Sequence record: PQ571289
Source: Escherichia phage EF1-1
Strand: one strand, 5' to 3'
DNA length: 64,000 bases
Shown piece after piece: positions 6,619-10,776 of the stretch. Both the position numbers and the translations under genes were made by a program. Every line of letters starts with the position of its first letter. Positions within the stretch are counted from its first letter, which is position 1. The notes under the pieces were generated by a model. That model was given only the letters and a program-made list of their open reading frames with translations. It was not told the DNA's origin and made no database searches.

Positions 6619-6867
6619 ATGCATAACATGAAACGCATGAAAATTCGTATAGAAGATCCGTGTGGGTATGAGGGATTAGAAGGTGCAACATTCCCACTCA
6701 TCCTTGATGCTAAACTGGGTGACAAGGGGCTTGCCTATGTGCGATTCTCAACTATGATGCAAGTGGAAGGCTGGTGGTGGGATGAGGAAGATACGAAAGA
6801 AGGTCATGATTATAGTTTCTTCTCTCATGAGTATACGATTGTAGAGGAGACGAGTGATGATCTGTAA
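6619..6867 (+). CDS. paralog family B member 1 (KIRI..CGY..GW.W.E motifs)
   Basis: GAGGAG RBS; similar to 6854 and 10555. Confidence 0.6.
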   Translation: MHNMKRMKIRIEDPCGYEGLEGATFPLILDAKLGDKGLAYVRFSTMMQVEGWWWDEEDTKEGHDYSFFSHEYTIVEETSDDL

Positions 6868-7075
6868 AATTCGTATTGAGCATAATTGTGGTTACTTAGG
6901 ATTGCTTCATGTAGATTTTCCTGTTACACTGGATGCACATATTGGTTATGGCAGAAATGCCTACGTGCAGTTCACAACGATGAGCCATGTGCAAGGTTGG
7001 AAATGGGAAGAAGGGGATACTGTTGAAGGAGGTGAGTATGTTTTCCTTCGTGATGAATATGAAATTGTCTATTAA
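6854..7075 (+). CDS. paralog family B member 2
   Basis: tandem to member 1. Confidence 0.6.
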   Translation: MMICKIRIEHNCGYLGLLHVDFPVTLDAHIGYGRNAYVQFTTMSHVQGWKWEEGDTVEGGEYVFLRDEYEIVY

Positions 7076-7078
7076 AGG

Positions 7079-7327
7079 TTGTGTGCAATGATCACACCAC
7101 AACAGAATGAAGCAGCAATGGATCTTCTTGATAGTTTGTATTTCGATAATTGGTACTCTGAATGTGAATGGATGAATATGCAAACTCTGAAAGAGAAGAC
7201 AAAAGCGTTGATTACAGTAGATCAATTTCTTGCAGAGACGGAAAGAATGAATTATGATATGGCATCTCGCGCACGACGCGTTTCCATTTTCAATAAAATG
7301 TTAGCATTATGGGGAGGTAGAAAATGA
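7079..7327 (+). CDS. hypothetical protein (82 aa)
   Basis: ORF in operon. Confidence 0.5.
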   Translation: MCAMITPQQNEAAMDLLDSLYFDNWYSECEWMNMQTLKEKTKALITVDQFLAETERMNYDMASRARRVSIFNKMLALWGGRK

Positions 7328-7785
7328 GACAATTCACTATACTGGCAGCTTATGTGCAATGTGTTCACGATTATGTTAGTGCTCATACAGGTTTGCTGGA
7401 AGTTACCAGTAAAATTGAAGGTAATATGGGTACTGTCTGTGTGCAACATACTTTATCCAATGTGCCGTTTAAAGTGTTCACTGTTGTAGCTGCCGATTAC
7501 AATCGTGTAGATGTGCGTTTCTTGGATCATAATTTTCGTAACGCACTAGATAATATCGAAGATTATCTTCCCGTGAAACCTTTGTCATTTCCACCGAGTC
7601 GTGCAAATAATGTAGTGACAAACCTTAATGAAAGGAATGTGGCTATGCACAAAAAAGTCCGTCAACTGAAAACGCTGATGGAAATGCAAGAAGAGATTGA
7701 AAAAGAACTGAAAGAAGATTTTGGTATGCTTCCAAAAGACGCTTTGAAATGGTATGATGAACTAGGAGGAGAAAGTTATGAATAA
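7324..7785 (+). CDS. hypothetical protein (153 aa)
   Basis: GGGGAGG RBS. Confidence 0.6.
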   Translation: MRQFTILAAYVQCVHDYVSAHTGLLEVTSKIEGNMGTVCVQHTLSNVPFKVFTVVAADYNRVDVRFLDHNFRNALDNIEDYLPVKPLSFPPSRANNVVTNLNERNVAMHKKVRQLKTLMEMQEEIEKELKEDFGMLPKDALKWYDELGGESYE

Positions 7786-7972
7786 AGGAACTACTGTATA
7801 TTTAGTAACAAAGAATACCCCAGGCTGGAGCCAATGCAACACTGTCCCTTACAAGATCTGTGCAACATTAGAACTAGCACAACGTGCAGAAGCAGAAGTG
7901 GATGCTATGCGATACAGCTATGGTGAAATCATTCCTTTCACTCTTGAACAAGAAGGAGCATACAATGTTTAA
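7778..7972 (+). CDS. hypothetical protein (64 aa)
   Basis: AGGAGGAG RBS. Confidence 0.5.
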   Translation: MNKGTTVYLVTKNTPGWSQCNTVPYKICATLELAQRAEAEVDAMRYSYGEIIPFTLEQEGAYNV

Positions 7973-8420
7973 AGAAGGTCATGTCTACCGTTTCCAGGAT
8001 GAGGATTATATGCGACTATATTCTACCTTTGATAACAGTATGGCTGCTATCATTGGAGAGAATTTTTTCGAGGTGTTGAGCACTGATGCAAATGGTAATA
8101 TCTTGTCAATTGTTGTGATAGGGAGAGACGGTATTATCACTGCTAGTGATGGGGATCGTTACATAATCAATTCTGCTCATATAGATTATTTTGTTGACGG
8201 TGGTATTCGTGGTGGTCGTGGAAAACCCCAAGAAGAACCTGTTGATACAACAAAAGAAGAGTGGTATGTTGTAATGACTGATGACACCTGTATTTCTGGA
8301 TTTGAAAGTTATGAAGAAGCTTTGAAAGAAGCAGCAGAGCATAAAATGGCTAATCCTACAGAAGAGGTTGAAGTTTATAAACGTTTGGTTGTTGCTACCA
8401 TCGGCGTATCTTTTGTTTAA
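7965..8420 (+). CDS. hypothetical protein (151 aa)
   Basis: AAGGAG RBS at internal ATG of ORF 7884..8420. Confidence 0.55.
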   Translation: MFKEGHVYRFQDEDYMRLYSTFDNSMAAIIGENFFEVLSTDANGNILSIVVIGRDGIITASDGDRYIINSAHIDYFVDGGIRGGRGKPQEEPVDTTKEEWYVVMTDDTCISGFESYEEALKEAAEHKMANPTEEVEVYKRLVVATIGVSFV

Positions 8421-8432
8421 AGGGGGAATGTT

Positions 8433-8870
8433 ATGTTCAAAGCTAATGCTGTTTACTGTTTCAAAACTAAAGCTGCCCGTGAAGCTTTCTCTATGATCTC
8501 TGATGAAAATTTCAAAATGGCAGCTTTGATTGAAGGGTCTTGTTTCCGCGTCGAAGATGTTAGTGAATCAGGCTCTGTTTGCTCATTGACTTTATTGGAC
8601 AGCGGGGATATTATTGAAGCTGGACAATATCCGTTCAGAAGTTGGGGGATATTGTTAGCTCGCGGAGAGCGTAACTTTTTTATGTGCGTGTCTGCGGGGG
8701 AAGTTGTGAAAGAAACTAAGGATGTTTCTGTTTACAATTCTGAATTTATAAGTTATAGTGAGTATCAACATCTGGAAGGCATTGTTGGTCACTTGTTATC
8801 TCTGATTGACGTTGAATGTGACCTGCCTGAATCATTGAAAGAAGAGTTGAAAGCATTAGATCTGCTATAA
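8433..8870 (+). CDS. hypothetical protein (145 aa); C-terminal LxDVECDLPxSLKE motif
   Basis: AAGGGGGA RBS; C-terminus shared with 9197 gene. Confidence 0.6.
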   Translation: MFKANAVYCFKTKAAREAFSMISDENFKMAALIEGSCFRVEDVSESGSVCSLTLLDSGDIIEAGQYPFRSWGILLARGERNFFMCVSAGEVVKETKDVSVYNSEFISYSEYQHLEGIVGHLLSLIDVECDLPESLKEELKALDLL

Positions 8871-8897
8871 TGTTTCACACAACGAAAGGAGAATAAG

Positions 8898-9409: not shown

Positions 9410-9420
9410 TAGGAGATCGT

Positions 9421-9654
9421 ATGAAAGGTAACAAGATGAAAGTTAATCAAGTGCCGAGCGCATACACTCTGTGGCTTGCGCGAGCGTTAAACCAGGCGAT
9501 CAAAGATCCTAAGAAGCCAATGAAGAGTGGGAAGAAGTTTATGTCTAAGGGCAAAAAAACCTTTGGCTTCACTCGTATGTCTGTTAAGATGAAAAGGCTG
9601 GGGTACAAGCCAAACTATGCTCGTTACCCTTCTGAATACAACTGGTTTGACTAA
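9421..9654 (+). CDS. small basic protein (77 aa)
   Basis: AGGAG RBS. Confidence 0.55.
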   Translation: MKGNKMKVNQVPSAYTLWLARALNQAIKDPKKPMKSGKKFMSKGKKTFGFTRMSVKMKRLGYKPNYARYPSEYNWFD

Positions 9655-9667
9655 AAGGAGAAAGATT

Positions 9668-9844
9668 ATGGCTACTTTTCAACAATTGAAAGATGTTTCA
9701 CGTTTAGTAAGAAAAATCCGAGAAGCAGACGCTGCTGTGCGGAATGCATTAACGCCAGCAGAGCGTGAAGATCTTGAAGAGGAGGTGAAAACAGCCGAGA
9801 ATTCTTTTGCTGCGTATCTTTCAACACTGTACACAGGAGGTTAA
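9668..9844 (+). CDS. hypothetical protein (58 aa)
   Basis: AAAGGAG RBS at internal ATG. Confidence 0.5.
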   Translation: MATFQQLKDVSRLVRKIREADAAVRNALTPAEREDLEEEVKTAENSFAAYLSTLYTGG

Positions 9845-10159
9845 ATGTCAGAAGAACTTAAAGAATTTTATCAGGCATATCATAACTGGCTGTTAGCTGG
9901 TGCTCCAGATAATAATCCTTTCTGGCATGATAAAGGGTTATGTAGTTGCCTCTACCTTTGGACTGGTGGTTACGATGATCTAAATTATGAAATGCAAATG
10001 CAATTTCGAGAAGCAGGGTTGTCTGAAGAATACCCGTTTGATGACGGGGACAGGTTTAAATATGATTTTGCACAAAGAAACGGGCTATTGCATTTGAATG
10101 CTGCCCGTATAAAATGGGTAAAAGATCATGCTACACAGGAGGATGTGCAATGCCAATAG
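9845..10159 (+). CDS. paralog family A member 2
   Basis: CAGGAGG RBS; motifs WLLAGAP..GLCSCL..IKWVKDH. Confidence 0.6.
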   Translation: MSEELKEFYQAYHNWLLAGAPDNNPFWHDKGLCSCLYLWTGGYDDLNYEMQMQFREAGLSEEYPFDDGDRFKYDFAQRNGLLHLNAARIKWVKDHATQEDVQCQ

Positions 10160-10350
10160 TATTTAGTTTCTTGATAATTGTTATGGTTGTTCTTTTCGCG
10201 GCATGGCTTTGGGATTTTGACCCAGGAGCAGCGCAGCAAAGAGCTACAGACTGGAAAGAACAATGTATTGTGCTCAAACATGAACGAAATGCGGAGAAAT
10301 TTCTTGACCTAGAGTGTGATCGCCTTGTAAGATACAAGCAAGATAAATAA
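10150..10350 (+). CDS. small membrane protein (66 aa)
   Basis: CAGGAGG RBS; N-terminal hydrophobic helix. Confidence 0.5.
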   Translation: MPIVFSFLIIVMVVLFAAWLWDFDPGAAQQRATDWKEQCIVLKHERNAEKFLDLECDRLVRYKQDK

Positions 10351-10364
10351 CCTTGAGGTGCAAA

Positions 10365-10553
10365 ATGGTAATAGAGATTAAACTTGAATATGCTGGGGCT
10401 GTTGCCCTGATCGCACAAACGCTTGGAGCAAAGATTGAAGAAGTGTACATCAATGCCTGGAGCGTAGAGATTGATGTTCCTATGGACAACATCGCTAATC
10501 GCTTGCTGGTGGCAGAGTGTGAACGCACCAACATAATCTACAAAGGAGCATAA
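10365..10553 (+). CDS. hypothetical protein (62 aa)
   Basis: GAGGTG RBS. Confidence 0.45.
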   Translation: MVIEIKLEYAGAVALIAQTLGAKIEEVYINAWSVEIDVPMDNIANRLLVAECERTNIIYKGA

Positions 10554-10554
10554 T

Positions 10555-10776
10555 ATGAAAATTAGAGTTTGCGATGTATTGGGTTATGTTGGTTTTGAGA
10601 ATGTTCAGATTCCTTTTGTTGTTGAAGCACATCTTGTTAGCGATGATATGACAACATTCTTTGTTACGATAGAAGAAATGTCCAAAGTTGAGGGATGGGA
10701 GTGGTTTGAAGAAGATGTTTGGGAAGGTTGCGATTACGTATTTTTCTCTGATGAAGTGAATGTTCTTTCGGAGTAG
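10555..10776 (+). CDS. paralog family B member 3
   Basis: AAAGGAG RBS. Confidence 0.6.
   Translation: MKIRVCDVLGYVGFENVQIPFVVEAHLVSDDMTTFFVTIEEMSKVEGWEWFEEDVWEGCDYVFFSDEVNVLSE

Follow-up and report, generated by a model that had tools for sequence, protein, structure and literature searches.

The window, i.e. the whole stretch of 64,000 nucleotides that was analysed, comes from a phAPEC8-like, Phapecoctavirus-like phage of the Stephanstirmvirinae with a genome of about 150 kb. It carries three small related genes (family A), two genes of a second paralog family (family B) and a stretch that is probably equivalent to the direct terminal repeat (DTR) of a relative. These features are located as follows.

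5557..5930, no strand: inferred DTR equivalent, aligned to the direct terminal repeat (342 bp) of BME3, a relative
6170..6547, plus strand: B1, family B (PHROG 2510, of unknown function), directly upstream of copies 1 and 2
6619..6867, plus strand: copy 1 (A1), 82 aa from ATG 6619
6857..7075, plus strand: copy 2 (A2), 72 aa from ATG 6857
9845..10159, plus strand: B2, also family B (PHROG 2510), lying two small ORFs ahead of copy 3
10555..10776, plus strand: copy 3 (A3), 73 aa

The three ORFs of family A lie where a preliminary description had placed them, except that the start of copy 2 is moved from GTG 6854 to ATG 6857. Copy 1 has a GAGGAG ribosome-binding site at 6607-6612, 6 nt ahead of its ATG, and since the conserved module begins only at Met7 (6637) a shorter product of 76 aa is possible. 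The corresponding GAGGAG of copy 2 (6844-6849) lies within copy 1, with spacers of 4 nt to GTG 6854 and 7 nt to ATG 6857. Use of the GTG, which is 3 nt upstream of the ATG, would yield a protein of 73 aa, and relatives, including the SF1-1 ortholog, are annotated from the equivalent of ATG 6857. Copy 2 and the 3' end of copy 1 overlap by 11 nt, which makes translational coupling of the two genes likely, and copy 3 is preceded by AGGAG at 10544-10548. The encoded proteins are acidic, with a net charge of about -10 for copy 1 (pI 4.5), about -6 for copy 2 and about -14 for copy 3 (pI 4.05), and each contains only 3-8 basic residues.

The copies rank 2nd, 3rd and roughly 15th among about 50 co-directional ORFs, mostly small and mostly acidic (most with a pI below 6), in a block that starts just inside the region aligning with the BME3 terminal repeat, as defined for that phage by PhageTerm. 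In addition, the records of several relatives begin or end at the equivalent of window positions ~5557-5568. From these alignments we infer that the 5557..5930 stretch probably represents the physical end of the genome, just upstream of the gene block. The position of the three genes in the block near this DTR equivalent is the one line of evidence, a circumstantial one, that they are early genes, and makes this part of the preliminary description plausible. A scan for consensus promoters found 72, against 55.8 +/- 8.5 in shuffled sequences, which is a marginal excess, and an Rfam scan of positions 4500-11200 at gathering thresholds returned no RNA family. Strict Fur boxes (<=3 mismatches) were absent; looser Fur-box matches were noted.

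Paralogy, family membership and selection

The paralogy of the three genes is significant by alignment, with pairwise BLASTP E-values of 2e-24 for copies 1 and 2 (53% identity), 7e-19 for copies 1 and 3 (44% identity) and 3e-15 for copies 2 and 3 (37% identity). A profile built from the three copies and run over the six-frame ORFs of the entire window matches the copies themselves at E 8e-45 to 3e-41 and reveals no fourth copy; the next-best match has an E-value of only 0.79, and we therefore count exactly three copies in the window. The shared motif that had been read from the sequence is essentially right, but four of its elements each hold in only two of the three proteins: the Cys in CGY, the Phe in FP, AH and F.TM. 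The three-copy alignment is invariant at K-I-R, G-Y-x-G, P, A, V, M and V-x-G-W-x-W-x-E-x-D-x-x-E-G-x-x-Y-x-F-x-x-x-E. Family-wide, the conserved positions are P20, K2, V37, G47, D54, Y61, F63 and E67, with K2 as the sole conserved basic position.

Copies 1, 2 and 3 match PHROG 15322 at E 1.9e-29, 1e-22 and 2.5e-44, respectively, in each case over the full length of the profile (positions 1-73 of 73), and there are weaker matches to PHROG 13367 and PHROG 20482. The PHROG 15322 examples phAPEC8_0021 and phAPEC8_0033 are all annotated 'hypothetical protein'. The family extends to about 46 distinct representatives at 50% identity and 104 clusters at 90% identity, none of the latter carrying a functional name. 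Searches of domain databases place it apart from described families: the three copies have no Pfam match at E <=1, SH3-clan profiles included, no Pfam SH3 family recurs among 34 family members scanned, NCBIfam gives no match to the family, and a family-profile search of PDB sequences yields nothing better than E 1.6. Searches of the literature on the PHROG identifiers, on Stephanstirmvirinae, phAPEC8, phi92 and BASEL phages and on SH3-like early proteins retrieved no functional data on these genes, and no described function, structure or literature for the PHROG 15322 family. We conclude that the three genes are diverged copies of one phage-specific single-domain protein of ~70 aa (PHROG 15322). 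Four long proteins with multi-stretch matches in an exhaustive search (P0018, P0034, P0051 and P0053) were rejected as members because only short pieces match; these are repeat proteins or translated repeats.

Relatives carry between one and three copies, and the three-copy state is confined to this window, SF1-1 and ZCKP1, the only two phages with near-identical orthologs of copy 1 (96-97%). Copy 3 is the most conserved copy across Phapecoctavirus, with 63 phage records at >=95% identity (95-100%). Orthologs occupy matching genome positions in 111 Stephanstirmvirinae records, and at the first locus both copy number and sequence differ between closely related phages. For ortholog pairs with dS >=0.1 we obtained dN/dS values of 0.055-0.30, i.e. 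the orthologs evolve under purifying selection and the genes are real. The earlier interpretation is thus borne out in part, as a small duplicated gene family under purifying selection and of varying copy number among relatives; its proposal that the products are host-factor inhibitors is neither supported nor contradicted.

Predicted fold and modular architecture

The fold is predicted with high confidence (AF2 model of copy 3, pLDDT 95.4, pTM 0.82) to be a five-stranded, strongly bent antiparallel SH3-like beta-barrel with a long ordered loop bearing the conserved signature PGWxWxExDxxEGxxYxF, and on this model the window copies consist of the barrel alone. Its structural neighbours are OapB, SH3, KOW, PsaE and retroviral integrase C-terminal domains. 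The model superposes on SH3-type small beta-barrels over about 45-53 of 73 residues with an r.m.s.d. of 2.3-3.4 A, which, as a bent five-stranded barrel superposing on SH3/KOW-type domains, places it in the SH3-like small beta-barrel fold class. The topology is shared with SH3-type small beta-barrels, eukaryotic SH3 among them, but the Pfam sequence profiles of the canonical and bacterial SH3 families (SH3_1, SH3_3 and others) are not matched. A Foldseek search of BFVD retrieves similar small barrels in T4-like phages, e.g. RB49 and Merlin (TM 0.68-0.78). No catalytic-family signature was found in the module in Pfam, NCBIfam or PDB sequences.

In relatives the module is always N-terminal. It may be stand-alone, form tandem duplicates that are distinct genes or parts of a single polypeptide, or belong to a longer protein. 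The longer proteins, e.g. WWT40971.1 of Klebsiella phage phi1_175008, combine a module, a linker and a helical hairpin, two modules and a hairpin, or a module and a coiled coil. An acidic linker tethers the barrel to the hairpin or coiled coil in these long forms, and no docking on the barrel is predicted; the long-form model is confident for the barrel (residues 1-69) and for the helical hairpin (74-98 and 101-123) taken separately, but has a pTM of only 0.57. The hairpin of one long form gives a sub-threshold match to DUF7438 (22.2 bits against a cut-off of 25), and the C-terminal hairpin was not found as a separate gene in the window (best E 0.18). At least two adjacent module genes are also present in a 48-kb IMG/VR phage from outside this subfamily.

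The combination of barrel, linker and variable C-terminal domain in the long forms is shared with the GoF/MotB.1/Frd.2 proteins of phage T4. These are the products of non-essential early genes, with several paralogs per genome, and in them a five-stranded SH3/LSm-like barrel at the N-terminus is connected through a flexible linker to variable C-terminal domains. The window copies, in contrast, are barrel-only, much more acidic and from another phage lineage. The neighbourhoods of the barrels also differ: the T4 barrels are closest to FeoA- and Hfq-type barrels, whereas the present family neighbours OapB, SH3 and integrase C-terminal domains. Alignment of each T4 protein (GoF, MotB.1, Frd.2) with the 34-sequence family profile using hhalign gave probabilities of 1.5%, 0.3% and 0.15%, at a sensitivity that is limited because the T4 side is a single sequence, and a module HMM had no match better than E 1.1 in two early loci of T4. 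The T4 proteins are an architectural analogue of the family and not a detectable homolog.

A putative binding module and its alternatives

The explanation that we tentatively prefer is that the module is a non-enzymatic binding head, made early and directed at a host (or possibly phage) target. A non-enzymatic SH3-like barrel of binding type together with the modular fusions is consistent with such a role. Since RNA, DNA and metals are also ligands of SH3/LSm-like barrels, protein binding is not the sole option. The acidity of the copies is weakly informative because most ORFs of the block are also acidic. The putative head would be produced early by host RNA polymerase, and its conserved aromatic/acidic loop would contact a host (or possibly phage) macromolecule. 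In the long forms the helical tails may drive oligomerisation, which we propose would confer avidity, and tandem genes or tandem modules could provide the same multivalency, or a wider target range. The paralogs may have diverged toward different targets or target variants.

A more far-reaching version of this binding head seems doubtful to us. Here the barrel would be the portable targeting head of an undescribed, phage-restricted, modular early-effector family and would recognise a protein of the host, perhaps one of its defence or nucleoid components. Valency would be tuned by the hairpin or coiled-coil tails and by the tandem arrangement of modules and genes, and the paralogs of the hypervariable first locus near the terminus would track host variation in an arms race. 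Were this true, the three copies in the window would act on different targets, neutralising or redirecting them.

The neighbours of the module genes raise the alternative of a phage-internal adaptor, in which the module would bind a phage protein, e.g. a member of the adjacent, co-amplified family B or a factor for replication or assembly. In most Stephanstirmvirinae loci family B genes adjoin module genes; the window shows the orders B-A-A and B-x-x-A, and Klebsiella phage phi1_175008 the order A-B-A. The modules of the 48-kb phage sit between primase and lysis/terminase genes. We nevertheless consider an adaptor of this kind unlikely, given that the module gene of Klebsiella phages KP13-26 and KP2025 lacks any B gene within 9 kb, and that families A and B are both simply abundant in the block.

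As has been proposed for the LSm-like early proteins of T4, the module might instead be directed at RNA metabolism, binding RNA, an RNA chaperone or a degradosome component and altering mRNA stability or translation. This is rather improbable for proteins with a net charge of -6 to -14, so few basic residues and K2 as the sole conserved basic position. [quoted passage not shown]

We assign a similarly low probability to an acidic nucleic-acid mimic or anti-restriction decoy that, following the logic of T7 Ocr, would be expressed from the presumed first-entering DNA and titrate a DNA-binding protein of host defence or of the nucleoid. The module proteins are small and strongly acidic, and their genes are placed just within the inferred end of the genome. 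Close relatives differ in copy number and sequence, a pattern to be expected of counter-defence genes. T7 Ocr and other small acidic early anti-restriction proteins are likewise small, strongly acidic, encoded at the leading end of the genome, dispensable and variable between relatives. Ocr (gene 0.3), however, is an elongated helical DNA mimic of unrelated fold, whereas the module is a compact 70-aa barrel without an obvious DNA-like charge array. It shares strong negative charge, a property common to most ORFs of the block, with Ocr/ArdA/Arn-type mimics, but no structural or sequence similarity to known mimics was found among the listed PDB matches. A mimic or decoy would in any case be a special case of the binding head and not a true alternative to it.

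That these are spurious or decaying, functionless ORFs, as their shortness, 'hypothetical' annotation and variable copy number could suggest, is most improbable and is refuted by conservation and selection, i.e. by the number of representatives and clusters and by dN/dS values well below 1, with good ribosome-binding sites and a highly confident predicted fold also speaking against it. Least credible is homology of the copy 3 ortholog to lambda Ea8.5, for which there is nothing other than a product name in the Shigella phage SF1-1 record PQ571307.1: Ea8.5 (93 aa) gives no BLASTP alignment at E <=100 and an hhalign probability of 0.06%, no Ea8.5 chain appears in the family-profile search of PDB sequences, and other product names in the record are implausible for size (e.g. 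a 48-aa 'distal tail protein Dit'), so that the 'ea8.5' label is wrong and is refuted by sequence comparison.

The gene family is real, and such families are common in large phages; it is one among many uncharacterised small phage protein families and has nothing anomalous about it. It nonetheless provides a second, sequence-unrelated case, after T4 GoF/MotB.1/Frd.2, in which small SH3/LSm-like barrels with variable tails have been amplified in large lytic phages, and this points to a general plan for the early proteins of phages. Stephanstirmvirinae are in wide use as candidates for therapy and biocontrol, and the ~50 genes of the block are almost all uncharacterised. If the module does bind a host factor, it would offer a small, well-folded and easily expressed handle on early takeover or counter-defence in these phages.

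Three paralogous genes and their predicted fold

The three open reading frames of the preliminary description are all present, on the + strand, with the start of copy 2 moved from 6854 to 6857:

6619–6867, + strand: copy 1, 82 aa; GAGGAG ribosome-binding site 6 nt upstream
6857–7075, + strand: copy 2, 72 aa from its most likely start, ATG 6857; a second GAGGAG 7 nt before the ATG
10555–10776, + strand: copy 3, 73 aa; AGGAG 6 nt upstream

GTG 6854, the start proposed previously, lies just 4 nt from the GAGGAG as opposed to 7 nt for ATG 6857, and the annotated ortholog of copy 2 in Shigella phage SF1-1 (PQ571307.1) starts at ATG; the ATG is thus most likely the true start. 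Because the final 11 nt of copy 1 are also the first of copy 2, translation of the two genes is probably coupled. Pairwise BLASTP gave 53, 44 and 37% identity (E 2e-24, 7e-19 and 3e-15) for copies 1 and 2, 1 and 3, and 2 and 3, respectively; this significant similarity bears out the proposed family, and the 21 invariant columns of the three-way alignment largely reproduce the motif described for it. A three-copy profile run against all six-frame ORFs of the window matched copies 1–3 (E 1e-41 or lower) and no fourth copy, the next best match having an E of 0.79. Membership in the window is exactly three.

All three copies match PHROG 15322 over its full length (E 1.9e-29, 1e-22 and 2.5e-44 for copies 1–3) and PHROG 13367 more weakly; none matches Pfam, NCBIfam or PDB sequences. 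PHROG 15322 has no assigned function, and we found no paper mentioning these PHROG identifiers, i.e. the family is already catalogued without being described in the literature. Net charges of about -10, -6 and -14 and pI values of 4.0–4.9 mark the three proteins as acidic. Structure prediction, another check suggested at the outset, was run on copy 3 with a 34-sequence family alignment and returned a very confident AlphaFold2 model (pLDDT 95.4, pTM 0.82), in which five short strands (2–5, 21–24, 34–37, 61–64 and 68–72) form an SH3-like barrel and an ordered long loop (43–60) bears the conserved PGWxWxExDxxEG signature. The best matches in BFVD, a set of predicted viral structures, are uncharacterised proteins of ~65–85 aa (TM 0.65–0.83) with no known function among them; they include a paralog from Klebsiella phage ZCKP1 as well as proteins from T4-like phages and others (RB49, Merlin, Sf20, VpV262, CS01), and, the ZCKP1 paralog excepted, show 18–27% identity. 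These results show the module as a conserved, confidently folded small barrel, predicted to be non-enzymatic.

By design, the closest described system is the LSm-like GoF/MotB.1/Frd.2 group of Tevenvirinae, several non-essential early paralogs in which a flexible linker connects a five-stranded barrel at the N-terminus to C-terminal domains that vary (PMC12152347). Profile comparison detected no homology between the two (probability 1.5% or less), and we therefore treat the group as an analogue rather than the same family.

The name 'protein ea8.5' on the SF1-1 ortholog of copy 3 is unfounded. That record has further product names that seem to be unreliable transfers, among them 'RNA ligase' on the ortholog of window ORF 11081–11479 (132 aa), 'distal tail protein Dit' on a product of 48 aa, and 'putative ankyrin repeat protein RF_0381'.

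Architectures and copy number in relatives

When 1.84 billion representatives were searched exhaustively with the profile, 50 matched at E 1e-3 or less, four of them repeat artefacts. A second, alignment-based search gave 104 clusters, most on contigs of 140–155 kb and none with a functional name or Pfam domain. The module always lies at the extreme N-terminus; it is present more than once, as separate genes or as repeated domains, or is attached to helical tails.

Architectures of module-bearing proteins
Single module: 66–87 aa
Module and short helical tail: 112–143 aa
Module, acidic linker and helical hairpin ending ...KMIEEGV: 125–190 aa
Two tandem modules, linker and hairpin: 224–265 aa
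Module and coiled coil: 155–195 aa

Modelling of a 126-aa long form gave a confident barrel (1–69) and a confident two-helix hairpin (74–98 and 101–123) but a pTM of only 0.57, indicating independent modules without a fixed mutual orientation. Long forms occur in the Klebsiella-infecting Stephanstirmvirinae phi1_175008, KP13-26 and KP2025; coding sequence for the hairpin is absent from the whole window. Outside the subfamily, the profile detected two adjacent modules in a 48-kb IMG/VR phage, with a primase on one side and lysis/terminase genes on the other, and an adjoining third ORF, recognised by eye only, is module-like with a coiled-coil tail.

A tblastn search found the family in 111 phage records, nearly all of them from Stephanstirmvirinae, with three copies only in this window, SF1-1 and ZCKP1, two in most Phapecoctavirus and one in Justusliebigvirus. 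Copy 3 is 95–100% identical across 63 records, and the first locus (copies 1 and 2) is far more variable: phAPEC8 has one module gene there, with the MHNMKRMKIRIE start of copy 1 yet 60% identity to it, and window copy 2 is nearest to the single Justusliebigvirus copy (58.6% identity). The locus recombines and shifts in copy number. The dN/dS values of 0.055–0.30 (ortholog pairs with dS of at least 0.1) indicate functional genes under purifying selection. In a 141-aa metagenomic relative, residues 1–53 of copy 1 (cf. 6619–6777) are followed by a different C-terminal sequence, which on visual comparison is similar to the tail of window ORF 7902–8420; the protein looks like a deletion fusion, a sign of ongoing rearrangement at the copy 1 locus.

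The gene block and the probable genome terminus

The region is 94–97% identical to Phapecoctavirus-type Stephanstirmvirinae phages of ~150 kb; ZCKP1 is the best match, with 96.5% identity across 98% of the query. Copies 1–3 lie in a co-directional + strand block, ~6170–22062. A plain listing of the ORFs that start with ATG contains 53 of at least 55 aa there, a few overlapping and most with a pI below 6.

Features of the block and elsewhere in the window
4654–4676: strong terminator preceding an ORF-free stretch
6170–6547, + strand: family B (PHROG 2510; ~105–127 aa)
9845–10159, + strand: family B
13183–13509, + strand: family B
16010–16393, + strand: family B
17332–17670, + strand: family B
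10779–10985, + strand: 68-aa ORF directly 3' of copy 3; PHROG 24734, no assigned function
22105–22128: bidirectional terminator, perfect 10-bp stem, closing the + strand small-gene block, with - strand genes beyond
60677–62586, + strand: 11 tRNA genes (Met, Arg, Ser, Tyr, Asn, Thr, Gly, Gln, Pro, Ile, Met)

Upstream of the block, 1.4 kb (~4680 to about 6080–6170) is without ORFs. PhageTerm assigns Justusliebigvirus BME3 a direct terminal repeat of 342 bp (PMC12210895), which with its flanks aligns to window ~5557–5930, and the records of several relatives start or end at ~5557–5568. It is therefore likely that the physical ends of the genome fall within the window, and the family's block would be the first inside the end, with copies 1 and 2 its second and third genes. 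This position is consistent with early expression and is no proof of it; a scan for σ70-type promoters found 72 against 55.8 +/- 8.5 in shuffles, a marginal excess, and no transcriptome for Stephanstirmvirinae was found in the literature.

The five family B members share the motif FY..W...GLC..L ... PF...Y..E...N..R..WV.D (pairwise BLASTP E 1e-17 to 4e-5), have no Pfam match, often adjoin the SH3-like genes and number 2–8 in relatives (within the fetched stretches). The early block is built largely of shuffled paralogous modules. ORFs 8433–8870 and 9197–9409 (both + strand) have in common a ~48-aa C-terminal segment (...LDVECDLP.SLKEAL..L..L; 46% identity, E 3e-11), and ORFs 7902–8420 and 8433–8870 are weakly similar at the N-terminus (26% identity, E 0.004). 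The CxC...CxxC spacing of ORF 10779–10985 is suggestive of a small zinc ribbon; its RNHCP match is weak and sub-threshold (E 0.013). The terminator at 22105–22128 coincides with a GC-skew sign change near 22 kb.

Fur-box-like sites cluster at 4886–5831 (4886, 4892, 5348, 5396, 5628, 5807 and 5813), with others at 74–92 and 935–953 of record L013. Nine of the 15 window matches to GATAATGATAATCATTATC with up to five mismatches fall within a 1.5-kb stretch here (none in the window has three or fewer); the density is 6.0 per kb in the cluster versus 0.1 elsewhere, region shuffles average 0.18, and the annotated BME3 repeat starts with a 17/19 match. Iron/Fur-linked control, or Fur titration, may thus operate at the genome terminus.

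A possible role for the module

Helical tails of the kind attached to the module commonly mediate oligomerisation. Our tentative reading, to which we give a little less than an even chance, is that the module is made early in infection and acts as a binding module, whose conserved aromatic/acidic loop would contact a host (or phage) macromolecule, with multivalency supplied by tails or by modules or genes in tandem, and with paralogs diverged in specificity. A special case of such binding would be that the acidic module serves as a decoy for DNA-binding proteins of defence systems or of the nucleoid. The module could instead be an adaptor for another phage protein, for which family B, co-amplified and neighbouring, is a candidate partner, although the adjacency is not universal. 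An RNA-directed role, as discussed for T4 GoF, is disfavoured by the charge of the module and the absence of conserved basic residues.

The three genes constitute a real and statistically solid paralog family. Their products, small SH3-like proteins of the early region, belong to a phage-restricted modular family. Such a set of paralogs is no anomaly in a large lytic phage, and it is a reasonable candidate for pull-down or deletion work.
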